Assembly: GCA_013314715.1 (NCBI GenBank)
Contig: JABUFC010000001.1
Span: 100,511-164,510, forward strand
Direction: 5' to 3'
DNA: 64,000 nucleotides
Origin: Bacteroidales bacterium
GTDB taxonomy: Bacteria > Bacteroidota > Bacteroidia > Bacteroidales > GWA2-32-17
The translations under genes were made by a program, and so were the position numbers. Below are positions 22,978 through 41,817 of this stretch, piece after piece; position 1 is the stretch's first letter, and the number at the start of each line of letters is the position of its first letter. The notes under the pieces were generated by a model, which was not told where the DNA came from, did not search any database, and worked only from the letters and a program-made list of their open reading frames with translations.

Positions 22978-23814
22978 ATGAATAGCATACAAGGTCCCAT
23001 AGGTGTTTTTGATTCCGGTTATGGGGGGTTAACGGTTTTAAAATCGTTTAAACAATTTTTACCTCAATATGATTTTATCTATTTGGGCGATAATGCTCGT
23101 GCACCTTATGGAAGTCGTTCGTTTGAAGTTATTTTAGAATATTCACTCGAAGCCGTATTATGGCTTTTTAAACAAGGTTGTCCGCTTATTATTTTTGCTT
23201 GTAATACCGCATCGGCAAAAGCTTTACGAACCATTCAACAACGGTATCTGCCTCAAATAGATAATACCAAACGCGTGTTAGGTGTTATTCGTCCAACGGT
23301 TGAAGCGATTGGAAATTATACACAAACAAAAAAAGTCGGGATTTTAGGTACCATTGGTACCATAGTATCAGAATCTTATCCAATTGAAATTAAAAAGTTA
23401 TATCCAGAAATTACAACCTACCAACATGCCTGTCCTTTATGGGTGCCAATTGTAGAACACGAGGAAATGAATACGCCCGGTGCCGATTATTTTATCGAAA
23501 AAGATATTCGAGCCTTATTAAGTCAAGATAGCGGTATAGATACCATTATTTTGGGATGTACACATTATCCTTTATTACTACCTACTATTGAACGTTTTGT
23601 TCCCGAAGGAGTAAAAATTATTTCTCAAGATGTTATTGTTGCTCAAAGCTTGAAAGATTATTTGAAACGTCATCCCGAAATAGAGACACGTTGTACAAAA
23701 ACTGGAACAACTACTTTTTATACTACTGATAACGAAGAATTATTTAATAAAAGAGCTAATATTTTTTTTGGCGAAGAAGTAAATGCTCAAAAGGTTATTC
23801 ATTTAAATATATAA
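22978..23814 (+). CDS. murI: glutamate racemase
   Basis: 278 aa with GVFDSGYGGLTV, ACNTAS and GCTHYP motifs. Confidence 0.94.
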   Translation: MNSIQGPIGVFDSGYGGLTVLKSFKQFLPQYDFIYLGDNARAPYGSRSFEVILEYSLEAVLWLFKQGCPLIIFACNTASAKALRTIQQRYLPQIDNTKRVLGVIRPTVEAIGNYTQTKKVGILGTIGTIVSESYPIEIKKLYPEITTYQHACPLWVPIVEHEEMNTPGADYFIEKDIRALLSQDSGIDTIILGCTHYPLLLPTIERFVPEGVKIISQDVIVAQSLKDYLKRHPEIETRCTKTGTTTFYTTDNEELFNKRANIFFGEEVNAQKVIHLNI

Positions 23815-23878
23815 AATTTGACCCATAATTTAAAGCTTTTATATACAATTCGTCTTTTATACTTTAAACTTTTTCTGT

Positions 23879-23886
23879 TATCTTTG
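23879..23886 (+). promoter_or_regulatory. -7 box TAtcTTTG for purL
   Basis: Exact TAnnTTTG match 22 nt upstream of the ATG at 23908. Confidence 0.5.
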
Positions 23887-23907
23887 TAAAAGAAAAAAAA
23901 CACCACC

Positions 23908-26130: not shown

Positions 26131-26132
26131 CC

Positions 26133-26831
26133 ATGATGCTCGATAAATCGAACGAAAAAATTGGAGCTATGTTTGATAATATAGCCCCAACTTACGATAC
26201 GCTGAATCATATCTTATCATTTAATGCAGATAAAAAATGGCGAAAAAAAGCAGTAGATGAGCTATTGTCTAATAGACCTACTACAATATTAGATGTAGCA
26301 ACTGGTACAGGCGATATGATTATAGAAATAGCTAACAGAGGCAATTTTAACATAATAGGAATTGATATATCTACGAAGATGCTAGCCATAGCAAAAGAAA
26401 AACATCAATTTTTACAATTAAAGAATATACAATATATAGAATCGGCTGCTGAATCAATTCCTATTAGCGATGCTTATTTTGATGCAGCAAGTGTCGCTTT
26501 TGGCGTTCGAAATTTTGAAAATTTACCCAAAGGATTAGCCGAAATTTATCGAGTGTTGCGTGTTGGTGGAGTATTGGTTGTATTGGAGTTTATTAAGCCC
26601 AATAACAAATTAACACGTGTCTTTTTGAGGTGGTATTTAAAATATATATTGCCTTTTATAGCTTATCTTATTTCAAAAAATCGCGATGCTTATAAATATT
26701 TAGCACAGAGTATCGATGAGTTTTATACTAAAGACAATTTTCAGCAAATATGCCAACATGCTGGTTTTAAAATTTTAAAAACAAAAGTATTGTTTATGGG
26801 TTTAGTTGCTATTTTTGTATTAAAAAAATAA
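26133..26831 (+). CDS. ubiE: demethylmenaquinone / ubiquinone-type C-methyltransferase
   Basis: 232 aa with FDNIAPTYDTLNHILSF and SAM-binding LDVATGTGD. Confidence 0.9.
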   Translation: MMLDKSNEKIGAMFDNIAPTYDTLNHILSFNADKKWRKKAVDELLSNRPTTILDVATGTGDMIIEIANRGNFNIIGIDISTKMLAIAKEKHQFLQLKNIQYIESAAESIPISDAYFDAASVAFGVRNFENLPKGLAEIYRVLRVGGVLVVLEFIKPNNKLTRVFLRWYLKYILPFIAYLISKNRDAYKYLAQSIDEFYTKDNFQQICQHAGFKILKTKVLFMGLVAIFVLKK

Positions 26832-26857
26832 AAAGATATTTTTCCCGTTATAGGAGC

Positions 26858-27616
26858 ATGAAATTTAAATTATTACTCATATTATTTATATTTTGTTTAA
26901 TACATATATCTGTTAAGTCGCAAAAAGAATCGACAGCACCTACTAATTTGCCCAAATATGATGTAATTCCATTGCATTTTGGCATGTCTTTAGGTTTTAA
27001 TTATATGGATTTTACTATTCACAATTCTTCTGCTTTTTGGTTACTCGATTCTGTTTATTCAGTAGAAAATATCCCTCAAGTTGGTTTAAATATAAATATT
27101 GTATCGAATTATAATATTCCATTTTCAAATTTTTCGATTCGTTTTTTGCCTGGACTTAATTTAGGTCAGCGAAATTTAGAATATTGGGTTAAAAAAGATA
27201 CAACATTTTACACACATACTATGAAAATAGAATCAACCTTTCTCGATTTCCCTTTATTGTTAGAATATAAAGGTGCGCGTATAAATAATTTTCGTCCTTA
27301 TTTAATAGCTGGTGGAAGTATAAAAGTAGATTTGGCATCGCAAAAACGTATTCGCGATGATGAGCGACCCAAGATTAGACTTGGTCGCTGGAGCTATTAT
27401 TATGAATTAGGCTTTGGCACAGATTTTTTTTTAGAATACTTTAAGTTTGCAATGGAACTTAAGTATGTGGTTGGTTTAAATAATGTTCTTGTACCTGATA
27501 ATACGCAGTTTACAAAGGCTATTGAACGTATGAATAGCAAAATGCTTATGCTTTCGTTTACATTTGAAGGTAGCGATATTCGGATATTTAAATTTGGAAA
27601 ACGTAAAGGAAAATAA
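26858..27616 (+). CDS. porT: PorT-family outer-membrane beta-barrel protein
   Basis: 252 aa with a signal peptide and alternating beta-strand pattern. From memory, a location directly after ubiE is the common Bacteroidota position for porT. The call rests on context and general resemblance. Confidence 0.65.
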   Translation: MKFKLLLILFIFCLIHISVKSQKESTAPTNLPKYDVIPLHFGMSLGFNYMDFTIHNSSAFWLLDSVYSVENIPQVGLNINIVSNYNIPFSNFSIRFLPGLNLGQRNLEYWVKKDTTFYTHTMKIESTFLDFPLLLEYKGARINNFRPYLIAGGSIKVDLASQKRIRDDERPKIRLGRWSYYYELGFGTDFFLEYFKFAMELKYVVGLNNVLVPDNTQFTKAIERMNSKMLMLSFTFEGSDIRIFKFGKRKGK

Positions 27617-27622
27617 TTTAAC

Positions 27623-29170
27623 TTGATTCAAAAAGTTACCATAATTATTTCGCCCGCTGATGCTAAAAACGATAATAAAATAATAAATTATTTAGCTCAG
27701 CAATTGAAAATAAATTCTAAACGAATTGTTTTTATACAATTGATTAAGCGTTCGATTGATGCTCGCAATGCACAGGTAAAATTACAGTTAACCTATTTAG
27801 TTCATATCGATAAGTTTGAGGTCATAAAAGAAAATGAAGCTTTTATACCTCAAAAATTAAAAAAAGATAAATCGGTTATAATAATAGGCTCGGGACCTGC
27901 TGGTTTGTTTGCTGCTTTGCGTTTAATTATGTTAGGAATTAAGCCCATTGTTTTTGAACAAGGAAACGATGTGCATCAACGCAAACGCGATATTGCTCAA
28001 ATGTATCGGATCAATGAAGTAAATGAGCAATCGAATTATTGTTTTGGTGAGGGTGGAGCTGGGACTTTTTCAGATGGAAAGCTTTATACTCGTTCGTCAA
28101 AGCGTGGAGATATTGAATGGTTTTTAAAATTGTTGATACAAGCTGGTGCTTCGACTAATATTGCTATCGATGCTCATCCACATATTGGTAGTGATAAATT
28201 GCCGGCAATTGTAGAAAATCTTCGCAAATGGATAATACAATCGGGTGGGGAAGTACATTTTGCCTCAAAAGTTAATCGACTCATTGTTAATAATGGTATT
28301 TGCAAGGGTGTTGAAGTTAATGGTGATGAAACTATTTATGCCAATGCTGTTATACTAGCAACGGGGCATTCGTCGCATGACGTATATAAAATGCTTGATG
28401 AATTAGGAGTTGAGCTTTTGCCAAAAGGTTTTGCTTTAGGGGTTCGTATTGAACATCCACAAAAATTGATAAATACGATTCAATATCATGATGAAAAATA
28501 TATAAAGTATTTACCTGCTGCAGAATATAAAGTTGTAGAACAGGTAAATGAGCGAGGCGTTTATTCTTTTTGTATGTGCCCAGGGGGTATGGTTGTTCCT
28601 GCTTCAACTCAAAAAGGGTTGACGGTAGTAAATGGAATGTCGGCTTCGCATAGAGGTTCGCCATTTGCTAATAGCGGTTTTGTTGTAGAAATACGTCCAG
28701 AAGATATTGCTAAACAGGCTACTGCGGCTGATATGTTAGCATTTCAGTTGGCAATTGAAAAAAAAGCTTATCAAATGGTTGAAAATGGCTTAAAAGCCCC
28801 AGCACAGCGAATAGTCGATTTTATGCAAGGCAGAGTATCTGATCATTTGCCGACTACATCGTATATTCCGGGTCTAGTTTCATCGCCTATGCACCAATGG
28901 CTCCCTATTTTTATAGTAGAACGATTAAAGGGAGCATTCAAGAAATTGCAATACCGAATGAAAGGATTTATTGATGCTGAAGCTATTATGATTGGTGTAG
29001 AAAGTCGTACCAGTTCGCCTGTTCGTATTCCACGAAATCTTGATACTTATGAACAATTGCAAATAAAAGGCTTATACCCTTGTGGCGAAGGAGCCGGTTA
29101 TGCAGGAGGAATTACGTCGTCTGCTTTTGATGGGGTAGCTGTTGCTGAAGTTATTGCACAAAAATGGTGA
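27623..29170 (+). CDS. FAD-dependent oxidoreductase (COG2509-like)
   Basis: 515 aa with dinucleotide-binding IIIGSGPAGLFAA and a conserved C-terminus CGEGAGYAGGI. The ORF-track start is a TTG and no earlier in-frame ATG exists. Confidence 0.82.
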   Translation: MIQKVTIIISPADAKNDNKIINYLAQQLKINSKRIVFIQLIKRSIDARNAQVKLQLTYLVHIDKFEVIKENEAFIPQKLKKDKSVIIIGSGPAGLFAALRLIMLGIKPIVFEQGNDVHQRKRDIAQMYRINEVNEQSNYCFGEGGAGTFSDGKLYTRSSKRGDIEWFLKLLIQAGASTNIAIDAHPHIGSDKLPAIVENLRKWIIQSGGEVHFASKVNRLIVNNGICKGVEVNGDETIYANAVILATGHSSHDVYKMLDELGVELLPKGFALGVRIEHPQKLINTIQYHDEKYIKYLPAAEYKVVEQVNERGVYSFCMCPGGMVVPASTQKGLTVVNGMSASHRGSPFANSGFVVEIRPEDIAKQATAADMLAFQLAIEKKAYQMVENGLKAPAQRIVDFMQGRVSDHLPTTSYIPGLVSSPMHQWLPIFIVERLKGAFKKLQYRMKGFIDAEAIMIGVESRTSSPVRIPRNLDTYEQLQIKGLYPCGEGAGYAGGITSSAFDGVAVAEVIAQKW

Positions 29171-29816
29171 ATCCAATTATCTAAAATTAATAATTTAAAG
29201 AACGTTGCAAAAATCCAAACATTTAAAAAATTACAGAGGAAAAATAATAAAAAACTTATTTGCTGTTTATTGAAATTTGTTTTATTTTTGTATAGTTAAC
29301 ATCTGTAATGCTTTTCAGGTATTATATACAAGCTCTTTTTAGCTTACAAAAACTGTAAGTGAAAGGGCGGAGCTGTAGAATAAAATGAGCAAAAATAGTT
29401 TACAAAAAATTAAATCGCCTTTTAATGATTTGTAATTTATCTTTTATATTTGTAAAAAAATAAAACGCTACATTATAGCGCTTATACATCCAAATATGGA
29501 AATAAGGCGCAATAAAGTAGCGCATATAAACGAGTTATATTTCATTGCTCGTATTCACAAGTATTAGTGTTTCATATTAGCTGAGTTTATTTTTTTAGCA
29601 TATCATAAAATTATCACCTCAGAAGCTTTTTCGAGCAAAAATACTTTTCACACGCTTTGTCATGAAATTTGTACGGGCATGAAAACAAAAAAATGGGCAA
29701 CAAAATAAACGTTCTACGAAATAAACCACTTTATTGAGCTTATTGGAGAAAGGGAGCAATACAAATTTCCATGCCAAAGCTTACTTAACAGCATACTTCG
29801 CAACACAAACATAACA

Positions 29817-29920
29817 GCCGCTTGGTAGCATTTTTTAGTTTATTTTCAATAACACTTGGATATTATAAATAAATGTTTTAACTTTGTCGAGCAACGTTCA
29901 TAAAAACGCTACCAAGCGGC
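29817..29920. repeat. 13-bp perfect inverted repeat with a 78-nt AT-rich spacer
   Basis: gccgcttggtagc (29817-29829) and gctaccaagcggc (29908-29920) are exact reverse complements. The match extends to 19 of 20 positions if the adjacent T/A run is included. Confidence 0.85.
29856..29886 (+). promoter_or_regulatory. candidate promoter of the metal-efflux operon (-33 TTG, -7 TAacTTTG)
   Basis: TTG at 29856-29858 and TAACTTTG at 29879-29886 are 20 nt apart, matching the Bacteroidota promoter architecture. The promoter lies inside the spacer of the inverted repeat. Confidence 0.5.
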
Positions 29921-30046
29921 GGAACGTTGGCAGCAATGGTAACGGACGACACTACCAAGACCAAACGGACAGAAAAAACGAGCAGACAATGACACAAGAC
30001 AAAGATTTAATTTTTGCCCAACACACATTTTTTTGTTTTTCTGCCA

Positions 30047-30122
30047 CCGCACAAGTGGCACATTTGGTTTTGCCCGACACACAACGCCAACGCTTCGCAA
30101 AACCAAAAGAGCCACTTTTTCC
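30047..30122 (+). repeat. C/A-rich block cluster, left copy (partner at 38325-38434)
   Basis: The left copy contains, in order, ccgcacaag, gcacatttg, cgacacacaa, acgcttcgcaaaa, caaaagagc and ctttttcc. All six recur in the same orientation at 38325-38434. Confidence 0.6.
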
Positions 30123-30171
30123 CTATCGAACTTAGACAGCGTTTTAAATTTTTAAGTATCTTTACCAGCGA

Positions 30172-30483
30172 ATGAAGTGTTTTTTAATCATATTCAGTGT
30201 TTATTTCTTGGCATTATCGCTAATGCCTTGTACTGATGCACTCGGTATGAATGCCCCCAATACTTCAAAAACAGAAATTACTAAAACGCACAATGGCGAT
30301 GCAGAACATAACGATTTTTGCAGTCCGTTTTGTATTTGTAGTTGTTGTAATACCCCTGTTAATATAACCTTTGATTCGTTTAGCATAAAGGTAAATAAAC
30401 CTGTCGCAACTTCACTTAAAATACCCGTTTTTAATTTCTTTTTCGCTTCCAATTACTACGGAAGCATTTGGCAACCGCCATAA
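30172..30483 (+). CDS. small Cys-rich membrane-anchored or secreted protein (DUF6660-like)
   Basis: 103 aa with a hydrophobic N-terminus MKCFLIIFSVYFLALSLMPCTDA, the Cys cluster CSPFCICSCC and the C-terminal GSIWQPP. From memory, this family is annotated DUF6660 and typically precedes czcA in Bacteroidota. Confidence 0.7.
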   Translation: MKCFLIIFSVYFLALSLMPCTDALGMNAPNTSKTEITKTHNGDAEHNDFCSPFCICSCCNTPVNITFDSFSIKVNKPVATSLKIPVFNFFFASNYYGSIWQPP

Positions 30484-30586
30484 ATCAGTTAATGAATTTA
30501 TGATGTTCTGTAACGCAGAACAAAACAGAATTATTTACGGTGCTTACGCACCGCAAATAATCGTGTATTCATTCATTAAACTGATT
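30483..30586 (+). promoter_or_regulatory. 104-nt three-stem structured element between the DUF6660-like gene and czcA
   Basis: The outer stem pairs 30483-30497 with 30571-30586 (15 bp, one bulged A). It encloses hairpins gttctg/cagaac (30505-30521) and cggtgc/gcaccg (30538-30553). The element ends 8 nt before the czcA ATG. Confidence 0.5.
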
Positions 30587-30593
30587 AAAAATA

Positions 30594-33500
30594 ATGTTAG
30601 ATAAAATCATAAAATTTAGTATTCAAAACAAGCTTGTTATTGGTATAATGACCTTGTTGCTTATCATTTGGGGAGTGTGGAGTGCCACAAAGCTTCCCAT
30701 TGATGCCGTACCTGATATTACCAACAATCAGGTTCAGATTATTACCGTTTGTCCTACGCTTGCGGCACAGGAAGTGGAACAGTTGGTGACATTTCCTATT
30801 GAACAAAGCATTGCCAACCTGCCCGATTTAGAAGAAACCCGAAGTATTTCACGGTTTGGGCTTTCGGTTATTACGGTTGTATTTGATGATAATGTGGATA
30901 TATATTTTGCCCGACAGCTTGTCAATGAAAAACTGAAAGAAGCCGAAGAAAAAATCCCAAAAGGCATTGGCACACCCGAACTTGCACCTGTAAGCACAGG
31001 TTTGGGCGAAGTGTACCAATACATCATACACCCCAAAAAAGGGAGTGAACATAAATACAATGCCAAAGACTTGCGTACTATGCAGGATTGGATTGTTGCC
31101 CGACAGCTAAACGGAACAAAAGGCATAGCCGAAGTAAACAGTTTTGGTGGCGAACTGAAACAATATGAAGTAGCCGTAAATCCCAACCGCTTAAAGGCAA
31201 TGGGTGTAAGTGTTACCGATATTTTCAATGCTCTTGAAAAGAACAATCAGAATACAGGTGGTGCATACATTGACAAAAAACCAAATGCTTACTTCATTCG
31301 GGGTATTGGTTTGGTTACTTCGTTGGAAGATGTAAAAAACATAGCTGTAAAAAACACTAACGGCAGTATTCCGATTTTTATAAAAGATGTTGCAGAAGTT
31401 CGTTTTGGTAATGCGGTTCGCTACGGAGCATTAACCTACAATGGCGAAGTAGATGCCGTTGGCGGTGTGGTAATGATGCTCAAAGGCGAAAACAGCAACG
31501 AAGTAGTAAAACGTATCAAAGAAAAATTGCCTGTCATTCAGAAATCTTTGCCCGATGATATTGTCATTGAGCCTTATTTGGACAGAACAGATTTAGTTGG
31601 CAGAGCAATCAGCACCGTAGAAAAGAATTTAATTGAGGGAGCGTTGATTGTCATTTTCGTGTTGGTGCTGTTTTTGGGAAATTTAAGAGCAGGTTTAATT
31701 GTGGCTTCCGCTATTCCGTTGTCAATGCTGTTTGCTTTGGGAATGATGAATGTTTTCGGAGTAAGTGCCAATTTAATGAGTTTAGGAGCTATTGACTTTG
31801 GTTTGATTGTGGACGGTGCAGTTATTATTGTAGAAGCCACTTTGCACCATTTGGGTTTGCGAAAATCAATGAACAAGCTGACACAGCAGGAAATGGACAA
31901 CGAAGTTTTTGTGTCCGCTTCCAAAATCAGAAACAGTGCAGCGTTTGGCGAAATCATTATTTTAATCGTGTACATTCCTATTCTCACATTGGTAGGCGTT
32001 GAGGGCAAAATGTTTACACCAATGGCTAAAACAGTAGGATTTGCCATTTTGGGAGCATTTATTTTGTCGCTTACTTATATACCAATGATGTGTGCTTTGT
32101 TTTTGTCAAAAAAAAGTTTCACACAAAGAAACCATTTCAGACAAGATGATGAACTACCTGCAAAGCATTTACCAACCGCTTTTGCAGAAAGCCGTAAAAA
32201 TAAAATATTGGATTGTTGCTTCGACCGCTCTACTCTTTGCCTTTTCCCTTTTGCTCTTTAAAAATTTAGGTGGCGAATTTATACCACAATTACAAGAGGG
32301 CGATTTTGCGTTTCATTGCATATTGCCACAAGGCAGTTCGTTGAGCCAAAGTATTGAAACTTCAATGCAGGCATCAAGAATTATCAAGGAATTTGATGAA
32401 GTAAAAATGGTAGTCGGCAAAACAGGGGCTGCCGAAGTACCTACCGACCCGATGCCACCTGAAGCCACAGATTTAATGGTAATACTTAAACCAAAAAAGG
32501 AATGGAAAGAACAGAAAAGCTATAACCAGCTAGCTGATGAAATCAATGAAGCTTTGGAGGTTATACCGGGTGTATTCTTTGAAAAAAATCAGCCTATACA
32601 AATGCGTTTCAACGAATTGATGACAGGGATTCGGCAGGATGTGGCGGTTAAGATTTTCGGGGAAAATTTAGACAGTCTTGCCATTTATGCAGATAAGGTA
32701 AGTAAGGTTATTCAAACAGTAAACGGAGCGACTTCGCCACAGGTAGAACGGGTTAGCCGATTGCCACTAATCAATGTAGAATACGATAGAACACGACTTG
32801 CCAATTACGGTATCAATGTAGAAGATGTAAACAATGTAGTAAGCACCGCATTTGCAGGAAAAAGTGCAGGACAGGTTTTTGAAAACGAAAGGCGTTTTGA
32901 TTTAGTGGTACGATTAGACAGTACATACAGAACGGACATAGACGATGTAAGCAATTTGATGATACCTACCAACACAGGTAATCAGATACCACTATCACAA
33001 GTAGCTAATATTAGCTACAAGTTGGGACCAGCACAAATCAGCCGGGAAGCAAGCAAAAGAAGAATTGTTATCGGCTTCAACGTATCGGGCAGAGATGTAC
33101 AAAGTGTGGTTGAAGATATTCAGCAGAAATTAAGCGAGCAGATAAAATTGCCCACAGGCTATTACTTTACTTATGGCGGACAGTTTGAGAATTTACAGAA
33201 AGCAAGTAAACGCCTGATGATAGCTGTTCCAATTTCGCTGTTCCTTATTTTTTCGTTGCTATACTTTACGTTCCGTTCGGTCAAACAGGCAAGCCTGATT
33301 TTTACCGCAATCCCAATGAGTGCCATAGGTGGCGTGTTTGCGTTGCTGTTGCGTGGTATGCCGTTCAGCATTTCGGCAGGTATCGGCTTTATTGCTTTGT
33401 TTGGTGTAGCAGTATTAAACGGAATTGTCTTAATCGGAACTTTCAACCAATTAGAAAAAGACGGAGTTAAAGACATTTTCAAACGAGTATTTGACGGCAC

Positions 33501-34962
33501 AAAGGAAAGGTTGCGACCTGTACTAATGACGGCAACCGTAGCAAGTTTGGGCTTTTTGCCTATGGCATTAAGCACAGGTGCAGGAGCAGAAGTACAAAAA
33601 CCATTGGCAACCGTTGTTATTGGCGGATTGATTACGGCTACTTTCCTTACGCTGTTTGTACTGCCTTTGCTGTATATCATTTTCAATTCAAAAATCAACA
33701 TCAGAAAAAAAGGAAAAATGAAATCCGTTACAACCGTAATTGTGTTGTTGCTTTCTGTTTTAAGTTTCAATGCAAATGCTCAAAACAAAAAAATAATTGG
33801 TGTAGATGAATCGATAAACATTGCATTGCAAAACAACGGAAATATAAAAGCGAAAGATTTTGAAATAAAATCGGCTCAAAGTCTGAAAAGAACATCGGGC
33901 GAATTACCGAAATTAGATTTTAATGCACAGTTGGGACAATACAACAGTATAAAGTTTGACCAATCTTTTCAAGTAGCACAAACGATACCGTTTCCGACTT
34001 TGTTCGGTGCTAAAAAACAACTGATAAATGCCGAAGTAAAAGGCAAAGAATTACAAAGTGAAATAACCGTATTGGAGTTAAAAAATCAAGTGCGTACTTA
34101 TTTCTATCAAATTCAGTATTTGCAGAATAATCAAAAGCAGTTGTTGTATTTGGATAGTTTGTACAATGATTTTATCAAAGTGGCAGAACTGCGTTACAAA
34201 ACAGGCGACACCAAAAAAGTAGAAATCAGTACAGCACAAGCCAAGCAAGGCGAAATCAATTTATTGCTGAAACAAAATGGAGTTTATCTCAATAATGCTT
34301 ATCAAAATTTACAGGCATTGATGAATACAAAAGAACCGTTTGAAGTTGCCAATGATACAGATTTTAAGCCTTTGCAGGTAAGCACTTTGTTAGACAGCAC
34401 AGCCATTGCAAACCACCCGACAATTAAGGCGTTGTATCAAGATATAATCATTGCAGAACAAACAAAAAAGGTAGAGAAAGCACAGGGTTTGCCCGATTTT
34501 ACGATTGGTTACACTAATCAGTCTTTAATAGGTTTTCAAACTATAAACGGACAGGAGCAGTATTTTAATTCGGGCAATCGGTTCAGTTATGTAAGCGTTG
34601 GTGTTTCTATTCCTTTGACTTTCGGAGCTACAAAAGCAAGGATAAAATCTTTGGACTATCAAAAACAAGCCATTGAAGCCAACACCAAGCAACAGCAAAT
34701 TTTGTTGGAAACACAGTTTCAAAATGCCATACAGCAGTATCAGCAGGATTTGCAGGAGTTCAATTACTATCAGCAACAAGCCTTGCCTAATGCAAACGAT
34801 ATTGTTTCATCGGCTCAATTAGGTTATCGCACAGGCGATATAAGCTATGTGGAGTATTTGTATGCTTTGCAAACGGCAACAGACATTCAGTTGAATTACC
34901 TAAAAAGTATTCAGCAGGTCAATCAATCGGTCATCAATATTTATTCAATAATCAATCAATAA
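30594..34962 (+). pseudogene. czcA: CzcA/CusA-family heavy-metal RND pump fused in frame to a TolC-like outer-membrane factor, interrupted by a frameshift
   Basis: ORF 30594..32261 gives the CzcA N-terminal half (MLDKIIKFSIQNKLVIG...). ORF 32092..34962 in the +1 frame continues it (VSHKETISDKMMNYLQSIYQPLL...). That ORF runs without a stop into a TolC-like module beginning MKSVTTVIVLLLSVLSFNANAQ at 33718. The frames join at the A8 tract at 32108-32115. Confidence 0.85.
32108..32115 (+). other. A8 homopolymer at the czcA frameshift site
   Basis: Frame 0 reads TCA AAA AAA AGT (SKKS...) and terminates 49 codons later. With A7 or A10 the reading would be S K K (K) V S H K E, which is continuous CzcA sequence. 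Confidence 0.9.
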
Positions 34963-34968
34963 TTCGGT

Positions 34969-36258
34969 ATGAAATTCAAAATAAAAAATTCAATCGTTTT
35001 TCCTTTGGCACTATGCACTTTGCTTGTGATAAGCAGTTGCGGTAGCAAAGACAATCATTCGCATAATGACGAAAATACAAAAGAAACAGGTACTTCTGAC
35101 GGACACAACCACGAAGAAGAAACGCCAACCATTGTCACGCTTACACAAGAGCAGATAAAAGCCGTTGGCATCACGTTGGGCAAAGTAGAAAACAAGGAAC
35201 TCACAGCCACTATAAAGGTAAATGGTATGCTTAAAGTTCCAAACAACAACAAAGCAATTGCCACTTCTTTGTATGGTGGAGTTATCAAAACGCTGAATGT
35301 GCAAATTGGCGATTATGTAAAGAAAGGACAGGTAATTGCTACGATTGCCAATCCGCAGTTTATACAGTTGCAGGAAGAATATTTGACTATTGGCAGTAAA
35401 ATCACTTTTGCAGAACAGGAAGTACAACGCCAAAATGAACTCAATGCAGGAAACGCAGGAGCTTTGAAAAATCTGCAATACGCAACGGCAGAACTCAATA
35501 CGCTTCGCACCCGAAAAGCATCATTGCAACAGCAAATACAGCTAATGGGCATCAATCCAAATTCGGTATCAAACAGCAACTTGAAATCTACATTGGTAGT
35601 TACAAGTCCGTTGAATGGAACAATAAGCAATTTGTTTGCAAAGATTGGCAGTTATGTAGATATTTCTTCGCCTGTTGCCGAAATCGTAGATAACAGTTCA
35701 TTGCATTTGGATTTACAAGTGTTTGAAAAAGATTTACCGCTTTTGAAAATCGGGCAAACCATTCATTTTACCTTAACCAATAATCCTACTAATGAATACG
35801 ATGCAAAAGTGTTTAGCATTGGTTCATCATTTGAAAACGAGAGCAAAACCATTGCCGTGCATTGCACCGTTACAGGAAACAAAATAGGTTTGATTGACGG
35901 AATGAACATTACAGGAATTGTGAGTTTGAGCAATGCCCTAACACCTGCCGTACCCAATGAAGCCATTGTAAACGCAGACGGAAAAGACTACATTTTTGTT
36001 GTTACTGATAAAAAAGCGGAAGAACACCACGAAGAAGAAAGCGAAGAACACAACCACGAAAGTGAAGACCGTAAACACAGCAATGAAGAAAACGGCAACA
36101 TCAATTTTGAAAAAATAGAAGTTGTAAAAGGCGTTTCCAATATGGGCTACACCGCAATAACTTTTGTACAGGACATTCCTGCCAATGCTCAAATTGTAAT
36201 CAAAGGAGCATTTTTTGTCAATGCCAAATTATCTAACACAGGAGGACACAATCATTAA
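34969..36258 (+). CDS. czcB: efflux RND periplasmic adaptor subunit (CzcB/HlyD family), His-rich termini
   Basis: 429 aa with lipoprotein-like N-terminus LVISSCGS and a biotinyl-lipoyl-like fold (GDYVKKGQVIATIANP). His/Glu-rich tracts are HSHNDEN..DGHNHEEE and EEHHEEESEEHNHESEDRKH, and the protein ends GGHNH. Confidence 0.88.
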   Translation: MKFKIKNSIVFPLALCTLLVISSCGSKDNHSHNDENTKETGTSDGHNHEEETPTIVTLTQEQIKAVGITLGKVENKELTATIKVNGMLKVPNNNKAIATSLYGGVIKTLNVQIGDYVKKGQVIATIANPQFIQLQEEYLTIGSKITFAEQEVQRQNELNAGNAGALKNLQYATAELNTLRTRKASLQQQIQLMGINPNSVSNSNLKSTLVVTSPLNGTISNLFAKIGSYVDISSPVAEIVDNSSLHLDLQVFEKDLPLLKIGQTIHFTLTNNPTNEYDAKVFSIGSSFENESKTIAVHCTVTGNKIGLIDGMNITGIVSLSNALTPAVPNEAIVNADGKDYIFVVTDKKAEEHHEEESEEHNHESEDRKHSNEENGNINFEKIEVVKGVSNMGYTAITFVQDIPANAQIVIKGAFFVNAKLSNTGGHNH

Positions 36259-36270
36259 AAATTAAAAGCA

Positions 36271-38304
36271 ATGATAAATACAGATAAAAATCACAAGCAT
36301 ATTTACAATGTACAAGGTAAGCAGCTTTGTTGCACACAGGAAGAAAAAATTTACACCAATGCAGGTGCAAAAGAGTTGATAAAAGAAAAGCATCAACACG
36401 ACCATAGCGATGATGACGGACACGACCACAGCCACAGTGATAGCAACCTTTTCAAAGTGTTTTTGCCAAGCATTATTTCATTGGTGCTATTGCTTGTTGC
36501 CGTTTATTTAGACAATTTCCTAAAACCAGAATGGTTTACAGGTTTGGTAAGGATTGTTTGGTATGTGGTGGCTTATATTCCTGTTGGGTTTCCTGTAATC
36601 AAAGAAGCCGTTGAAAGCATTGCCAAAGGCGAGATATTTTCCGAATTTCTGTTGATGAGCATTGCCACAATCGGAGCGTTTGCCATTGGCGAATATCCGG
36701 AGGGCGTAGCCGTAATGTTGTTTTATGCTGTTGGCGAAGTGTTTCAGACATTGGCGGTAAAAAGAGCAAAAGCAAATATCAAATCTTTGCTTGACCAAAG
36801 ACCCGATGAAGTAACCGTTTTGCGAAACAACCAACCCCAAACCGTAAAGGCAGAAAGCGTAAACATTGGCGAAATCATACAATTAAAATCGGGCGAAAAA
36901 TTGGGATTAGACGGAGTTTTGTTATCCGAAACAGCATCATTTAACACCGCAGCTTTAACAGGCGAAAGCAAACCCGATACCAAAGCCAAAGGCGAAACAG
37001 TTTTGGCAGGAATGATAAACCTAAACACCGTTGCACAGATAGAAGTTACCACAGCATACACCGATAGTAAGTTGAGTAAAATTTTAGAATTGGTACAAAA
37101 TGCCACTTCACAAAAAGCACCGACAGAATTATTCATTAGAAAGTTTGCAAAAATATACACACCGATAGTTGTACTGTTAGCTATTCTAATTACAGCATTG
37201 CCCTACTTCTTTGTAGAAAATTATGTGTTCAGCCAATGGTTGTATCGTGCTTTGGTATTCCTTGTTATCTCTTGCCCTTGTGCATTGGTAATAAGTATTC
37301 CTTTAGGCTACTTTGGCGGAATTGGGGCAGCGAGTAAAAATGGAATATTGGTTAAGGGAAGCAACTTTTTGGATGTTCTTGCCAGCATACAAAATGTAGT
37401 AATGGATAAGACAGGTACAATGACGGAGGGCGTATTTAAAGTTCAGGAAGTTGTATTTGACAAGGCATTTGATGAGAAAGAAATTTTAGAAATGGTCAAT
37501 GCTTTGGAAAGCCATAGTAGCCACCCCGTAGCAACTGCCATTCAAGAATATGTAGGCGATGTAAACCACAATATCCCATTAGAAAATATAGAGGAAATTG
37601 CAGGACACGGACTAAAGGCTAATGTAAATGGGAAAGAATTATTGGTAGGGAATTTTAAGCTGATGGATAAATTTTCTATTACTTATGACATAGACCCGAA
37701 CAGCATTGTCTACACGGTAATCGCAGTGGCTTATGATAGAAAGTTTGTTGGTTACATTACCATTGCGGACAGCATAAAAGAAGACGCACAGGAAACCATA
37801 AATCTATTGCATAAGCTCAATGTTAAAGCTACTATGCTTAGCGGAGATAAAAGTACGGTTGTAAAGTATGTAGCGGAACAGTTGGGGATAGATAATGCTT
37901 TCGGAGATTTATTGCCTGAAGATAAAGTAAACAGAGTTAAAGAAATCAAAGCCAAAAATGAAACCGTTGCCTTTGTCGGAGACGGTGTAAATGATGCACC
38001 TGTTGTAGCGTTAAGTGATGTCGGTATTGCAATGGGCGGTTTAGGTAGCGATGCCACCATTGAAACAGCAGACGTAGTAATACAAGACGACAAGCCGAGT
38101 AAAATACCTATGGCAATCAATATCGGTAAACAGACAAAGAAAATTGTTTGGCAAAATATCACATTGGCATTTGTAGTAAAAGGAATTGTTTTAATACTTG
38201 GTGCAGGTGGCTTGGCAACAATGTGGGAAGCCGTTTTTGCCGATGTAGGTGTAGCATTATTGGCAATCTTAAACGCAGTACGAATACAACGAATGAAATT
38301 TTGA
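36271..38304 (+). CDS. heavy-metal translocating P1B-type ATPase (Zn/Cd/Co-type)
   Basis: 677 aa with SCPCAL (CPC), DKTGTMT, SSHPV and GDGVNDAP motifs. The N-terminus is the His-rich tract HQHDHSDDDGHDHSHSD rather than a CxxC HMA domain. Confidence 0.92.
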   Translation: MINTDKNHKHIYNVQGKQLCCTQEEKIYTNAGAKELIKEKHQHDHSDDDGHDHSHSDSNLFKVFLPSIISLVLLLVAVYLDNFLKPEWFTGLVRIVWYVVAYIPVGFPVIKEAVESIAKGEIFSEFLLMSIATIGAFAIGEYPEGVAVMLFYAVGEVFQTLAVKRAKANIKSLLDQRPDEVTVLRNNQPQTVKAESVNIGEIIQLKSGEKLGLDGVLLSETASFNTAALTGESKPDTKAKGETVLAGMINLNTVAQIEVTTAYTDSKLSKILELVQNATSQKAPTELFIRKFAKIYTPIVVLLAILITALPYFFVENYVFSQWLYRALVFLVISCPCALVISIPLGYFGGIGAASKNGILVKGSNFLDVLASIQNVVMDKTGTMTEGVFKVQEVVFDKAFDEKEILEMVNALESHSSHPVATAIQEYVGDVNHNIPLENIEEIAGHGLKANVNGKELLVGNFKLMDKFSITYDIDPNSIVYTVIAVAYDRKFVGYITIADSIKEDAQETINLLHKLNVKATMLSGDKSTVVKYVAEQLGIDNAFGDLLPEDKVNRVKEIKAKNETVAFVGDGVNDAPVVALSDVGIAMGGLGSDATIETADVVIQDDKPSKIPMAINIGKQTKKIVWQNITLAFVVKGIVLILGAGGLATMWEAVFADVGVALLAILNAVRIQRMKF

Positions 38305-38324
38305 CAAACCAACGCTAAAAGCAA

Positions 38325-38434
38325 GCACATTTGCAAACCGCACAAGGCGACACACAAGCCAAAGTTTGCAAAAGAGCTTGCTTTTTCCAACGCACGACAG
38401 AAAAAACAAAAAAATCTTTCCACGCTTCGCAAAA
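38325..38434 (+). repeat. C/A-rich block cluster, right copy (partner at 30047-30122)
   Basis: Contains gcacatttg 38325-38333, ccgcacaag 38338-38346, cgacacacaa 38348-38357, caaaagagc 38369-38377, ctttttcc 38381-38388 and acgcttcgcaaaa 38422-38434. The cluster starts 21 nt after the ATPase stop. Confidence 0.6.
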
Positions 38435-38539
38435 AATTAAATCTGCCGACACACCAAACCTGACAGACAAATACGAACGGACGGAAAAAACCACAGCTGC
38501 CAACATCGGTTTGGCGTTATGGCGGCTGACGTGCATAAT

Positions 38540-38960
38540 TTGAGCTTAGTGCTACTATTAAACTTTTGTGCTAAATTTGGGCTGATGTTCCCTGATTGCC
38601 GCCACAAACGCCAAGCCGTGAACCGATAGAGAGCAATACGCTTCGCTTTACGGTTTTTCCATTTAAAATTTCTGTGATATGTAGAAGTTTTAAAGCGGGT
38701 TGAAGGTTCTAACTTTTTTGAGCATGAGCAAGAGATTGGTGAGAAATTTCTAAATTCTCAAAACCTATTGCTCTCTCCCGAATACTCGGGACGGCTTCGG
38801 AAATAATCGAGCTCTGGATAACGTTCTTTGTTCGATGCCTATTCCCGCATGAAGCGTACAGCTTCTATCACGAGAGTTACCTTCTGTGAGAAGGTCTTGT
38901 CAAAATTTTTGACGAGACCATTTAGCCCTTAGTTCTATTGCGTTGTTTAAGAAAAAAAAC
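38540..38960 (+). other. ORF-free, hairpin-dense region (candidate structured 3'UTR or ncRNA)
   Basis: An 11-bp perfect long-range pairing joins agagagcaata (38628-38638) and tattgctctct (38766-38776). Local hairpins lie at 38777-38790, 38851-38865, 38879-38895 and 38894-38918. No credible ORF is present and strand is inferred only. Confidence 0.35.
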
Positions 38961-38963
38961 TAT

Positions 38964-39001
38964 AAAAAAGAGGCTGCCCTTTTGAGGCAGCCTCTTTTTT
39001 T
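38964..39001. terminator. bidirectional intrinsic terminator (ppdK on minus; metal operon read-through on plus)
   Basis: gaggctgcc (38970-38978) pairs with ggcagcctc (38986-38994). It is flanked by an A-run upstream and a T-run downstream, so it works on both strands. Confidence 0.8.
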
Positions 39002-39018
39002 ATTACATTTTAAATCAA

Positions 39019-41817
39019 TTATTTTTTCTTGTTTTTTGCTTTATTTGAACTACTTTTTTTAGTAGATTTCTTATTGGGAAAGCGAACAGCAGCCTGAGCA
39101 GCAGCTAAGCGAGCTATAGGAACACGGAACGGAGAGCAGCTAACGTAGCTTAAGCCAAGCATATGGCAGAATTCGATAGAACTGGGTTCGCCACCATGTT
39201 CGCCACAGATACCGAGTTTTATGTCTTTGCGGGTAGAGCGACCTTTTTCGCATGCAATACGCATTAATTCGCCAACGCTATCGCGGTCAATTTGTTGGAA
39301 TGGGTCAACAGGTAAAATTTTCTTTTCGAGGTATTCGGGTAAGAAACTTCCAATATCGTCACGAGAGAAGCCAAAGGTCATTTGTGTTAAGTCGTTGGTG
39401 CCAAATGAGAAGAATTGAGCATATTCGGCAATTTTATCGGCTGTTAATGCTGCTCGAGGAATTTCTATCATGGTACCAACTAAATGTGGTATTTCTTTTA
39501 ATTTGAATTTTGCTAAAACTTCGGAGTAAACTTTTTGTATAAGTTCGTATTGGTGTTTTAACTCTGTAAATACAGAAGTTACAGGAATCATGATTTCGGG
39601 ATAAGGATTCTTCTTTTCTTTGATGAGTTCGGCAGCTGCTTCAAAAATGGCTCTAACTTGCATTTCAGTAATTTCGGGGTAGGTAATGCCAAGACGAACA
39701 CCACGGTGTCCCATCATGGGGTTGTTTTCGTGGAGTGAGTCGGCACGTTTATTAAATTCTTCTGAAGAAATATTTAAGCTATTGGCAAGTTTTTCGCGTT
39801 CTTCTTTAATATGAGGTACGAATTCGTTTAGAGGAGGGTCGAGGGTACGGAAGGTTACAGGTAGTCCGTCCATGGCTTCTAAGGTGCCTTTAACATCTTT
39901 TTTTACATATGGGAATAATTCATCTAAAGCAGCACGACGTTCTTTTTCGGTAGTAGAAACAATCATTTTGCGAAGTAAGAATAAAGGTTTTTCGCTACCC
40001 ACACCATAAAACATATGTTCTGTGCGGAATAAACCAATACCTTCGGCTCCAAATGAGCGAGCTTTAGCTGCATCTTCTGGTGTATCGGCGTTGGTTCTGA
40101 TTTTTAAAGTACGAATATTATCGCATAATTTCATGAACTTTACAAAATCTTTGTTTTCTTCGGCTGCTTTAATCATAGGTAGTTCGCCAAGATAAACGAT
40201 ACCTTTAGAGCCGTTGAGTGTAATCCAATCGCCTTCTTTTAAGATAGTACCATCGGCACATTTAATTGTTTTCTCGTTAACATCTATATTAAGGTTGCTA
40301 GCGCCAACAATACAGCATTTTCCCCATCCTCTTGCTACTAAGGCAGCATGGCTGGTCATACCACCTCTACCTGTAAGAATAGCTTCGGCAGCTCTCATAC
40401 CGTCTATATCTTCGGGGTTTGTTTCTTCGCGAACCAAAATAACTTTTTTACCTTTTTTTGCCCATTCAACGGCATCGGCAGAATTGAATACTATTTGACC
40501 AGTAGCGCCACCAGGACCAGCAGGTAAACCGCTTCCTATTTTTTTAGCAGCTTTTTCCTTTTTGGGGTCGATAATGGGATGTAATAATTCGTCTAATTGC
40601 GATGGGCTAACTCTTAATACAGCTTCTTCTTTGGTAATAAGTTTTTCGTCTAGCATATCGAGTGCCATTCTAACTGCAGCAGGTCCATTACGTTTACCAA
40701 CGCGACACTGGAGCATATAAAGTTTTTCTTCTTGAATGGTAAACTCAATATCGAGCATGTCGCGGTAATGCTTTTCGAGTTTCTTTTGAATAGCATCCAA
40801 TTGTTTGTATGCTTTAGGCATTGCAGTTTCGAGTGAAGGTAAGTGCTTATTGTGTTCAGATTTTCCTACTTCGTTGATAGGGTTGGGCGTACGAATACCA
40901 GCTACAACATCTTCGCCTTGAGCATTGGGTAGCCATTCGCCGTAGAAGTATTTTTCGCCGGTAGCGGGGTTGCGGGTAAAGGCTACACCGGTAGCCGATG
41001 TTTCGCCCATGTTACCAAATACCATTGATTGAACATTAACAGCAGTGCCCCACCAGTCGGGTATACCTTCAATTTTACGATATGATATAGCGCGTTTACC
41101 ATTCCAGCTTTGGAATACAGCTGCAATAGCTCCCCATAATTGGTCTTTAGCATCTTCGGGGAAGGGTTTGCCTAAAACTTCTTTAACTTTCTTTTTATAA
41201 ATAACAATGAGTTCTTTTAAATCGTCTGCACTGAGTTCGGTTTCATGTTTTACACCTTTTTTGTGCATAAGTTTTTCCATTTCTTTTTCGAGTTGCTGGC
41301 GAACGCCCATACCGTCGGCGGGTTCAATGCCAGCAGCTTTTTCCATTACTACGTCGGCATACATTTGTATGAGACGGCGTTGAGAATCGTAAACGAAACG
41401 AGGATTTTTGGTCTTTTTTATGAGTCCTTCGCGAGTGGTATCGTTTAAACCAACATTTAAAACGGTATCCATCATACCCGGCATAGATGCTCTTGCACCT
41501 GAACGAACCGAAACCAATAACGGATTATTTTTGTCGCCAAATTTCATTCCCATTATTTTTTCAACTCGTGCAAGAGCTTTTTCTACTTGTTTTTCAAGTT
41601 CTTTGGGATAAGTTTTGTTGTGTTGGTAATAATAAGTACAAACTTCGGTTGTAATGGTAAAACCAGCAGGAACCGGAAGCCCAATGCTATCCATTTCGGC
41701 TAAATTAGCTCCTTTGCCACCTAGTAGTTCTTTCATGTCGGCTTTGCCTTCGGCTTCGCCATTACCAAAGAAATAAACGTATTTCTTTTCTTTTTCAGTT
41801 TTCTTTTTTGTTGCCAT
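39019..41817 (-). CDS. ppdK: pyruvate, phosphate dikinase
   Basis: 932 aa with GGKGANLAEM, the phosphohistidine region GGMTSHAALVARGWGK and the PEP-utilising C-terminal domain. Both termini carry Lys-rich extensions. Confidence 0.96.
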   Translation of the reverse strand: MATKKKTEKEKKYVYFFGNGEAEGKADMKELLGGKGANLAEMDSIGLPVPAGFTITTEVCTYYYQHNKTYPKELEKQVEKALARVEKIMGMKFGDKNNPLLVSVRSGARASMPGMMDTVLNVGLNDTTREGLIKKTKNPRFVYDSQRRLIQMYADVVMEKAAGIEPADGMGVRQQLEKEMEKLMHKKGVKHETELSADDLKELIVIYKKKVKEVLGKPFPEDAKDQLWGAIAAVFQSWNGKRAISYRKIEGIPDWWGTAVNVQSMVFGNMGETSATGVAFTRNPATGEKYFYGEWLPNAQGEDVVAGIRTPNPINEVGKSEHNKHLPSLETAMPKAYKQLDAIQKKLEKHYRDMLDIEFTIQEEKLYMLQCRVGKRNGPAAVRMALDMLDEKLITKEEAVLRVSPSQLDELLHPIIDPKKEKAAKKIGSGLPAGPGGATGQIVFNSADAVEWAKKGKKVILVREETNPEDIDGMRAAEAILTGRGGMTSHAALVARGWGKCCIVGASNLNIDVNEKTIKCADGTILKEGDWITLNGSKGIVYLGELPMIKAAEENKDFVKFMKLCDNIRTLKIRTNADTPEDAAKARSFGAEGIGLFRTEHMFYGVGSEKPLFLLRKMIVSTTEKERRAALDELFPYVKKDVKGTLEAMDGLPVTFRTLDPPLNEFVPHIKEEREKLANSLNISSEEFNKRADSLHENNPMMGHRGVRLGITYPEITEMQVRAIFEAAAELIKEKKNPYPEIMIPVTSVFTELKHQYELIQKVYSEVLAKFKLKEIPHLVGTMIEIPRAALTADKIAEYAQFFSFGTNDLTQMTFGFSRDDIGSFLPEYLEKKILPVDPFQQIDRDSVGELMRIACEKGRSTRKDIKLGICGEHGGEPSSIEFCHMLGLSYVSCSPFRVPIARLAAAQAAVRFPNKKSTKKSSSNKAKNKKK

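Follow-up and report, generated by a model that had tools for sequence, protein, structure and literature searches.

The 64,000-nucleotide stretch of DNA analyzed here, hereafter the window, belongs to a Bacteroidales bacterium (GTDB lineage Bacteria; Bacteroidota; Bacteroidia; Bacteroidales; GWA2-32-17; assembly GCA_013314715.1, contig JABUFC010000001.1, positions 100,511 to 164,510 of the forward strand). Between a gene for a FAD-dependent oxidoreductase and ppdK, it carries a block of metal-efflux genes that an initial annotation, made from the sequence alone, had described as a horizontally acquired island. We conclude, with a probability of roughly 0.8, that this island is an 8.7-kb, four-gene Zn/Cd-efflux cassette residing in a degenerate integron-like array. 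From left to right, the array would comprise the relic of a recombinase gene, an attI-like site, a first cassette, the metal-efflux cassette (cassette 2) and a truncated third cassette (Table 1). The inserted array as a whole occupies about 29171-38960 and the mobile unit proper 29927-38625; the interval first proposed for the island, 29640-38960, mixed three units. Overall, the initial observation was confirmed in part, and its interpretation likewise found partial support.

The mobility of the block is evident from its copies elsewhere. Comparison by blastn with other loci (numbered from L001) recovered the block at 96.7-99.9% identity, between unrelated flanks, in L001-L008 and L010. Its ends were precise to the base in at least six different contexts: in all loci compared, the common sequence begins at window position 29926 (GTTGGCAGCAATGG...) and stops at 38625 (...CGCCAAGCCGTGAACCG). 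Over 8.7 kb, the nearest copies show 7-8 differences from the window, and the identical 677-aa ATPase is indexed in 53 blocks of the contig collection. In the 10 ATPase contigs that we inspected the neighbours differ, among them MmeI-type restriction genes, beta-lactamases, ArsR with MerT, SprB/type IX secretion system (T9SS) cargo and LanC-like genes. The metal cassette itself was not found in the plasmid collection, where the best matches were those of the ATPase gene, at 81%, to Flavobacterium and Ornithobacterium plasmids.

A relative provides the corresponding empty site. L011, a Bacteroidales metagenome-assembled genome of the same genus, shows the order outer-membrane protein (OMP) barrel, FAD-oxidoreductase, ppdK and Rrf2 regulator. 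The FAD-oxidoreductase gene and ppdK, whose adjacency in relatives had been suggested as a check on the island, are indeed adjacent there, about 110 bp apart. The sole content of this gap is a terminator hairpin common to the window, homologous to the host terminator that limits the insertion on the right, and the model of attC-like sites described below detected no site in L011. The OMP-barrel protein, ppdK and Rrf2 are 93-94% identical between the window and L011. Together, the multi-context copies with precise ends and the empty site bear out the proposed horizontal acquisition independently of composition.

Composition had been the original argument, based on hand counts of G+C. In total G+C the difference was overstated: the island genes have 0.382, compared with 0.338 (sd 0.038) for the 35 other genes of the window, and four native genes match the island value, including ppdK at 0.405. 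The contrast holds at third codon positions (GC3), where the island has 0.356 versus 0.247 for native genes, none of which reaches the island mean (Mann-Whitney p = 2e-5). Similarly, the codon-usage distance to the native pool is 0.108-0.136 for the four long island genes and 0.049-0.107 for all native genes of at least 400 codons. The block is clearly foreign at synonymous sites and in codon usage. The burst of long antisense open reading frames (ORFs) reported for the island is also real, with seven opposite-strand ORFs of at least 120 aa overlapping genes in its 8.7 kb versus three outside it (55 kb). AT skew in the window is most strongly positive within the island, at 34000-37000 (0.14-0.21), which probably explains these long stop-free frames. 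A vertically inherited operon whose composition departs from its surroundings for functional reasons, such as membrane proteins or expression level, would fit a total G+C inside the native range, with ppdK and several other genes equally GC-rich. Such inheritance is already contradicted by the outlying GC3 and codon usage, by 99.9%-identical copies in unrelated contexts and by the empty site next to neighbouring genes of 93-94% identity, and we give it practically no weight.

The cassette is bounded on both sides by hairpin sites that resemble the attC sites of integrons. The last ~139 nt of the block (38493-38628) consist of GCTGCCAAC, an arm GGTTTGGCGTTATGGCGGC, a loop of ~70 nt, a return arm GCCGCCACAAACGCCAAGCC and GTGAACC, after which other contexts continue G/TT (the slash marks the point of exchange); the sequences 5' of the block in other contexts end in a like structure (...CGCMAAGCnnnnnAAC, directly followed by GTT). 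A search pattern made of the two stem arms and AACGTT only, with the R'' box outside the pattern, matched at least 120 contigs of the metagenome collection; an earlier, looser pattern had yielded single chance matches on viral contigs and was dropped. The class shares a layout of ~139 nt: an R'' box (..YAAC), a stem with conserved mismatches, a loop of ~85 nt, a return stem and AAC-GTT. The attC-like hairpin fold was seen in window site 2 and in five other sites. From 89 non-redundant sites we built a covariance model, R1, whose E-values are rough and whose training rows include window site 1 and the L004 copy of site 2. R1 finds exactly two sites in the window, both on the + strand.

The alignment of the 89 sites reveals the marks of a conserved structure. 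The AAC of the R'' box is present in 88 of them at a fixed distance (columns 20-22), though it was not searched for, and GTT is followed by R (88/89), K and M, giving a consensus nnMYAAC / GTTRKM that is near the textbook RYYYAAC / GTTRRRY, though not identical. Compensatory changes occur in 12 of the 17 stem pairs (at one of them, for example, GC 39, CG 31, AU 5 and UA 3). Paired cells amount to 91.1%, versus 67.9% in shuffles and 33-49% when partners are slid; double changes number 340 versus 132 in shuffles, and the covariation score is 0.493 versus 0.126, a value as high being reached in none of 500 shuffles. Mismatches, rather than clear bulges, are conserved at columns 29/145, 35/139 and 38/136. 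The bottom strand folds better at 59 of the 89 sites (mean -22.5 versus -21.3 kcal/mol, a difference of 1.2; p = 1e-5), a preference that agrees with single-strand recombination as in integrons without being proof of it.

Because crossover in integrons falls within the R' core, the opening bases of a cassette are complementary to the R'' box of the site at its own 3' end. We examined this relation in consecutive site pairs, and in 16 of 28 the six bases after GTT were, at all six positions, the reverse complement of those before the next AAC. By comparison, the rate was 1.6% for random pairs and 2.6% when each site was set against the bases following its own GTT, across the junction. The misses are mostly pairs with an intermediate site that escaped the regular expression. 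In the window, the start of the metal cassette (GGCAGC) agrees at 6/6 positions with the reverse complement of its own R'', and that of cassette 1 (ATATTT) at 5/6 with ATGTTT, the reverse complement of the six nucleotides before its own AAC. Such a start would be the signature of a circular cassette and would place the crossover at G/TT. Many related contigs carry arrays of 3-10 co-oriented units, with a median unit length of 1.06 kb (100 units; interquartile range 0.73-1.75 kb, 90th percentile 2.9 kb), so the 8.7-kb metal cassette is ~8 times the typical unit.

Table 1. Features of the inserted array and its surroundings (window coordinates; E-values of the R1 model are rough)
Feature	Position	Strand	Remarks
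FAD-dependent oxidoreductase gene	27623-29170	+	Left neighbour of the insertion
3'-end relic of a tyrosine recombinase gene	29352-29435	+	Last 27 codons; one internal stop; ends at the family's natural stop
attI-like primary site TATAAACGAGTTA	29525-29537	+	12/13 to consensus; 90 nt after the relic stop
Cassette 1	29535-29926	+	392 nt, AT-rich, ORF-less; starts GTT followed by ATATTT, ends with site 1
attC-like site 1	29798-29938	+	R1 60.7 bits, E 1.9e-12
Parts of site 1	R'' AAC 29813-29815; arms 29817-29835 and 29902-29920; R' GTT 29926-28	+	Arms of 19 nt, 95% complementary
Cassette 2, metal-efflux mobile unit	29927-38625	+	8,699 nt; same two ends in L001-L008 and L010
Cassette leader	29927-30171	+	245 nt; 5' motif GTTGGCAGCAATGGTAACGGACGACAC common to the class, C/A-rich tract, hairpin and T-run
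Leader hairpin, then T-run	30053-30117	+	Folds at z = -3.8
DUF6660, small Cys/His-rich protein with N-terminal hydrophobic segment	30172-30483	+	Pfam PF20365, E 1.7e-11
CusA/CzcA-family RND pump fused in frame to outer-membrane factor	30594-34962	+	Pfam ACR_tran halves and OEP
CzcB-like periplasmic adaptor	34969-36258	+	His-rich N- and C-terminal stretches; HlyD_D23, E 2.9e-29
P1B-2 (Zn/Cd/Pb-type) P-type ATPase	36271-38304	+	TIGR01512 and motifs
Terminator-like hairpin, then T-run	38317-38385	+	Paralogue of 30053-30117; z = -4.6; directly after the ATPase gene
attC-like site 2	38487-38637	+	R1 99 bits, E 1.5e-21
Parts of site 2	R'' box GCTGCCAAC 38496-38504; L''/L' stems; last G 38625	+	Architecture visible
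Cassette 3 remnant	38626-38960	+	Starts ATAGAGAGCAAT; R' is GAT, not GTT
Host bidirectional terminator of ppdK and the FAD-oxidoreductase gene	38964-39000		Terminator scan; right-hand limit of the insertion
ppdK	39019-41817	-	Right neighbour of the insertion

The flanks of the metal genes, originally taken for long ORF-free stretches, are not empty: they hold the two attC-like sites, an attI-like motif, the relic of a recombinase gene and the remnant of a further cassette. The relic (translation TVSERAEL*NKMSKNSLQKIKSPFNDL*, asterisks denoting stops) matches positions 352-378 of the 378 in a profile of 120 family members, with E 3.4e-5 over the six frames of 500 nt. By tblastn its E-value is 1e-4 locally and 0.011 over the whole window, and by blastn it is 71-83% identical to the recombinase 3' ends of L261, L262, L144, L263 and L264. 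The attI-like motif that follows has its presumed crossover between G29534 and T29535. Taken alone, its 12/13 match is at chance level in the window; it counts because it lies at the expected distance from the relic. No sequence similar to cassette 1 was found in any other locus compared. At the far end, the cassette 3 remnant lacks a 3' site and continues up to the host terminator. Over its first 103 nt it is 90% identical to L193 (positions 105-3), where this start follows a different site, again as AACC-GAT-AGAGAGC. A new point mutation to GAT is rejected on this ground; GAT is instead a property of the third cassette, and its start behind two different sites places the exchange point 5' of the TT/AT dinucleotide.

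The statement that no integrase, transposase or tRNA target is visible survives for intact genes. The window has no tRNA genes, Pfam searches of 37 long ORFs of the window returned no recombinase and no transposase, and the remaining three long ORFs (59328-63706) had no match to recombinase probes. Two sites with no intact integrase nearby, only the 27-codon relic, make the window resemble a cluster of attC sites lacking integron-integrases (CALIN), with a site spacing of 8.7 kb. This exceeds the 4-kb default clustering distance of IntegronFinder. The mobility of the island, left unexplained at the outset, is accounted for by a cassette bounded by attC-like sites in a degenerate platform.

Intact platforms in other contigs supply the candidate enzyme. 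Searching 568 kb of site-bearing contigs with an IntI1 probe, we found seven tyrosine recombinases. Those of L144, L147, L154 and L184 head arrays and adjoin core genes such as groEL and transketolase, and that of L218 adjoins one site in divergent orientation. The array-head proteins are nearest to NF040815 (XerA / "integron integrase"; 199-226 bits, an NCBIfam result independent of the IntI1 probe). On TIGR02249 they score 191-208 bits, below the cut-off of 265, in two stretches that skip profile positions ~180-254. Aligned to IntI1, they lack more than 30 residues of the IntI-specific insertion and have an extra N-terminal extension of ~100 residues; the additional domain around patch III that marks IntI is lacking. 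Their closest relatives of solved structure are XerA (E 1e-42), Vibrio IntI4 (5e-36, matched in two stretches) and XerD (2e-28). At E <= 1e-30 there are at least 7,997 homologous proteins, with named sources in Cyclobacteriaceae, Chitinophagales, Lentimicrobium, Flavobacterium and other Bacteroidia, some of them labelled "site-specific tyrosine recombinase/integron integrase" by PGAP.

We then reversed the direction of the search, taking four homologues picked solely for their long contigs, which gave five loci (L260-L264). Four of the five (L260-L263) have model-positive sites downstream of the recombinase on the same strand, and upstream there was one weak match alone, at 25.6 bits; L264 has no site, with just 2.2 kb of downstream sequence. 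The recombinase gene is mostly upstream of the array and co-oriented with the cassettes. A consensus TATAARYAAGTTR lies 62-116 nt after the recombinase stop in L144, L184 and L261-L264, with a close variant in L260. L263 and L264 share the same recombinase and upstream genes and have different downstream sequences, diverging directly after ...ATATAAGTAAGTTA (that is, after AAGTTA). From its position, this motif appears to be the functional analogue of attI: a primary site beside the recombinase gene, in a non-classical geometry that places it downstream of the stop codon. In sample SRR24079483 both L010, with the metal cassette, and L263, with an intact recombinase of the family, were found; this is co-occurrence in a sample only, not linkage.

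The same evidence bears on whether the cassette might be an ordinary integron cassette, whose attC sites are served by a classical IntI elsewhere in these genomes while the XerA-like recombinases are bystanders. The site architecture and the G/TT logic are those of attC, and low-frequency integrons have been reported in Bacteroidota (PMC8618304, PMC9024848). Against this, all IntI1-like matches in the 568 kb of site-bearing contigs lack the insertion, and there is no classical IntI among them. A recombinase heads the array in four contigs found through their sites and in four of the five loci found through the recombinase, the conserved motif stands at the point of cassette divergence beside the recombinase in six loci, with a variant in a seventh, and the relic in the window belongs to the array-head family. 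We consider this explanation unlikely, albeit the strongest of the competitors.

A transposon, integrative and conjugative element (ICE) or insertion sequence (IS)-mediated island, such as a composite element or conjugative cargo, would account for the defence and resistance genes near the cassette in other contexts and for the IS fragments (InsA, IS91, IS110) in some arrays. Transposase genes, conjugation genes and tRNAs are missing from the window, and a search for terminal inverted repeats and target duplications came up empty. Wherever sequence is available, the ends of the block coincide with hairpin sites, and the IS91-type elements represent insertions of their own into R'' boxes. As candidates for transposon ends, direct or inverted repeats linking the two flanks gave only weak matches (best E about 1e-3) and were rejected. 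An element of this kind is highly improbable here.

Scarcely more probable is an assembly artefact, in which a multi-copy cassette would have been misassembled into the chromosomal contig of a metagenome-assembled genome. L019, an independent assembly matching window 17867-29378 at 100% identity, breaks off at 29378 without reaching the cassette, and the cassette is present in many samples, as such an error would have it. That break, however, lies 550 nt before the cassette rather than at its edge. Moreover, the junctions are coherent, with site 1 at the left and an L193-type cassette start at the right, and the relic, the attI-like motif and cassette 1 occur in this context only.

An integron-like insertion of the metal cassette would have proceeded as follows. 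The cassette would be excised as a circle in another cell or array, with a predicted circular junction of ...GCCGTGAACCG joined to TTGGCAGCAATGG. The circle would then be inserted at the resident site 1 by a recombinase of the array-head family, encoded either by the local gene before most of it was deleted or by a copy elsewhere acting in trans. Several points weigh against this account. The recombination steps, with crossover position, strand and recombinase identity, are all read from sequence. The array-head recombinases fall below the TIGR02249 cut-off and are without the IntI-specific domain, and a classical IntI elsewhere could be the enzyme. The match of the relic is short (27 codons), and its E-value comes from a small search space chosen post hoc (0.011 window-wide). 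Site 1 is weak (60.7 bits), the attI-like 13-mer is by itself at chance level, and the presence of window site 1 and the L004 copy of site 2 in the training alignment makes the R1 scores partly a matter of construction. The R' at the last junction is GAT, not GTT. Finally, the window resembles a metagenome assembly, and both the placement of a multi-copy cassette and the A8 run described below could be assembly or sequencing artefacts.

The functions proposed for the four co-directional genes were confirmed by Pfam and NCBIfam, although a frameshift in the pump gene had escaped notice. The adaptor scores 130 bits on TIGR01730 (cut-off 94.9), the ATPase 491 bits on TIGR01512 (cut-off 313.5), and the intact 1455-aa pump of L004 1221 bits on TIGR00914 (cut-off 701); the outer-membrane factor (OMF) domain of the pump ORF matches Pfam OEP at E 1.5e-36. 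The 677-aa ATPase carries the motifs TGES, CPC, DKTGT, HP, GDGxND and a terminal ADVG, together with an N-terminal CCTQE and a His-rich stretch. The cassette accordingly encodes the pump, adaptor and OMF set of heavy-metal-efflux resistance-nodulation-division (HME-RND; CzcCBA-type) systems and an ATPase with the P1B-2 motif set. Going by family membership, the ATPase would move Zn/Cd/Pb, its likely metals, from the cytoplasm to the periplasm, the CzcA-OMF pump with the CzcB adaptor would carry metal out across the outer membrane, and DUF6660 may be a small Cys/His-rich accessory protein.

The pump ORF is split in the window (30594-32261 and 32092-34962) because of an extra A, a +1 frameshift in an A8 homopolymer at 32108-32115. 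Eight other copies have A7 there and encode an intact pump protein, of 1455 aa in most. The A8 run could be a sequencing error, a slippage-based on/off switch or the mark of a real pseudogene. As sequenced, the pump gene would be inactive in this genome and the ATPase arm alone intact. At the pump/OMF junction (33660-33790) there is an in-frame ATG at 33718, with an A-rich tract 5' and a signal-peptide-like segment (MKSVTTVIVLLLSVLSFNANA, followed by Q) 3'. Because of this ATG and segment, the CzcA-OMF "fusion" may give a separate OMF through internal initiation or cleavage.

The cassette opens with a leader whose hairpin has a paralogue after the ATPase gene, and the stems of the two carry compensatory differences. 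The hairpin motif (GCACATTTG, 30-60 nt, CAAAAGAGC and a T-run) recurs in 14 loci without the metal cassette (L161, L163, L166, L190, L201, L207, L212, L217, L220, L237, L239, L241, L253 and L260), and where its position was checked it lies 55-190 nt 5' of an attC-like site. Because of this recurrence and position, the hairpin appears to be a module of the cassette system rather than a metal sensor, with a role as terminator/insulator or as accessory protein-binding site. Other leaders show shared features as well. In the first 60 nt of 140 cassette starts (L140-L259), a motif GTTRKMnGCAAT..TAAAAGACGACA extends beyond the core, the sequence is A/C-rich and G-poor (G 0.12-0.15), and ACGAC occurs within +10 to +60 after GTT in 34 of the 140, compared with 4 of 140 further in.

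A metal-responsive regulator is indeed absent, as pointed out in the initial annotation: no such gene lies within the cassette, and the 245-nt leader has no riboswitch match in Rfam at E <= 1. A scan for sigma-70 promoters and terminators, a method ill-suited to Bacteroidota, gave counts near expectation. Rfam found nothing in the whole window at gathering thresholds, and sub-threshold matches in 38900-39050 were set aside, all lying on the ppdK terminator.

The copies of the metal cassette vary at their 5' end. In L004 (3755-3815, compared with window 29926-30086) the window's first ~150 nt give way to ~56 nt of other sequence (GTTGTGTGC...), with the join inside the leader hairpin. Nothing alignable to window 30240-30588 is present in L001, L002, L005, L007 and L009, and in L002, L005, L007 and L009 a diverged 108-aa DUF6660 is annotated in place of the window version. 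L009 has a further diverged stretch, outside the otherwise 96.7-99.9% identical remainder.

Units beside the metal cassette carry varied cargo. In L001 a defence-gene unit of ~7 kb comes after it (9068-16120), with an MmeI-type restriction enzyme, an M78 peptidase/HTH protein, DUF4411 and a caspase-like protease. Further neighbouring cassettes (L005 8872-10310; L002 12367-15029 and 530-2030) hold an ArsR and MerT/HMA mercury unit and two beta-lactamase units, and an RQC/HRDC protein and a PIN toxin pair are also among those of L001, L002 and L005. The recombinases of L175 and L194 were rejected as the cassette enzyme, being accessory integrases of IS91-family elements with Y2_Tnp/Zn_Tnp_IS91 genes adjacent. 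Elements of this family at L175 ~560, L194 ~1907 and L215 ~2636 abut three different attC-like sites, and their identical end CCGAAGGTTTAGTTC stands directly against the AAC of the R'' box, as if the box were targeted. GTTC is a known IS91 target.

The insertion lies in chromosomal DNA of low GC (about 0.34) from an anaerobic Bacteroidales-like organism. Core genes of the window include dapB, infC, thrS, FeFe-hydrogenase, T9SS genes, purL, ubiE, ppdK, an Rrf2 regulator and recA. Next to the insertion, the FAD-oxidoreductase (window 27623-29170 versus L011 668-2209) is just 70% identical to its counterpart; because the neighbouring proteins reach 93-94%, this suggests allele replacement or accelerated divergence. 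The only exact match to this protein was in L019, which belongs to the same genome and stops short of the cassette, and no record of the exact ppdK protein was found.

Integrons are regarded as nearly absent from Bacteroidetes. In0 elements were described first and then a single complete integron, in Salinibacter ruber (IntegronFinder 2.0 paper, PMC9024848), and Bacteroidota are listed only among the phyla with sporadic integrons (PMC8618304, PMC9668308). For recombination by integrons, the IntI-specific domain is treated as a requirement (PMC9668308) and, according to Messier & Roy 2001 as cited there, the additional domain defines IntI. No description of a Bacteroidota platform of this kind was found in the full-text literature searched, whose coverage was incomplete, so this is absence of evidence only. 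We give even odds to the broader proposition that Bacteroidota possess a widespread gene-capture system, missed by IntI-based definitions, that combines an XerA/IntI-related recombinase lacking the IntI domain, an attI-like site just past its stop and uniform sites of ~139 nt, and that can move operons of 7-9 kb. If so, the Zn/Cd-efflux cassette and the 7-kb restriction/defence cassette would exemplify such large units. Were the arrays active, a major phylum would have its own cassette-capture machinery built on a simpler recombinase, which would bear on the evolution of IntI from Xer-like ancestors and on the need for the extra domain. Complete multi-gene resistance operons would then be movable, in addition to promoterless genes moving singly. 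Beta-lactamase, mercury and phage-defence cassettes are likewise found in the arrays, whose activity would matter when co-selection for metals and antibiotics is followed in Bacteroidota of the environment and the gut. For the window itself, an unexplained island would become a dated, mechanistically readable insertion.

Compared with known systems, the arrays are closest to integrons. They share the promoter-distal imperfect palindrome with its R''-L''...L'-R' layout and AAC/GTT triplets, the cassette start complementing its own R'' with an indicated G/TT crossover, and tandem, co-oriented arrays of mostly single-gene, ~1-kb units. They also share a tyrosine recombinase and a simple primary site at one end, and a chromosomal location beside core genes. 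They differ in a recombinase that lacks the IntI-specific additional domain and has an extra N-terminal extension of ~100 aa, in a gene that is mostly co-oriented with the cassettes, and in an attI-like site 62-116 nt after its stop rather than upstream of its start. The sites are uniform (~139 nt), with conserved 1x1 mismatches rather than obvious single-base bulges and an asymmetric spacer (1 nt on the R'' side versus 5 nt on the R' side). The cassette described here is itself unusual, with 8.7 kb, four genes, a 245-nt leader and its own terminator-like hairpins. Because the IntI additional domain is absent and platform geometry, site uniformity and mismatch type differ, we file the system as an integron-like variant, not as a classical integron, and the array of the window, whose sites lack an intact integrase, as CALIN-like.

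The cargo, in turn, resembles czcCBA-type HME-RND systems paired with ATPases of the ZntA/CadA type (P1B-2), in that pump, adaptor and OMF stand with a Zn/Cd/Pb ATPase for two-step export. Here, however, a single ORF encodes both pump and OMF, with a signal-peptide-like segment where the two meet, the operon starts with a DUF6660 gene, no czcRS, czcD, MerR/ZntR or ArsR regulator is present, and the pump gene of the window copy is frameshifted. Xer modules (pdif modules and IMEXs) share a recombinase that is Xer-like by sequence and discrete, resistance-carrying units. Their sites, in contrast, are 28-bp, double-stranded and dif-like with two half-sites, whereas those described here are hairpins of ~139 nt with covarying stems, and the directional units stand in tandem arrays headed by a dedicated recombinase. 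Genomic islands of the tRNA-integrase type likewise show foreign composition at synonymous sites, accessory resistance cargo and absence from a close relative. The window has neither the features of such an island nor those of a composite transposon: it lacks a tRNA target, an intact integrase and direct-repeat att sites, and the boundaries of its metal-efflux cassette are hairpin sites.

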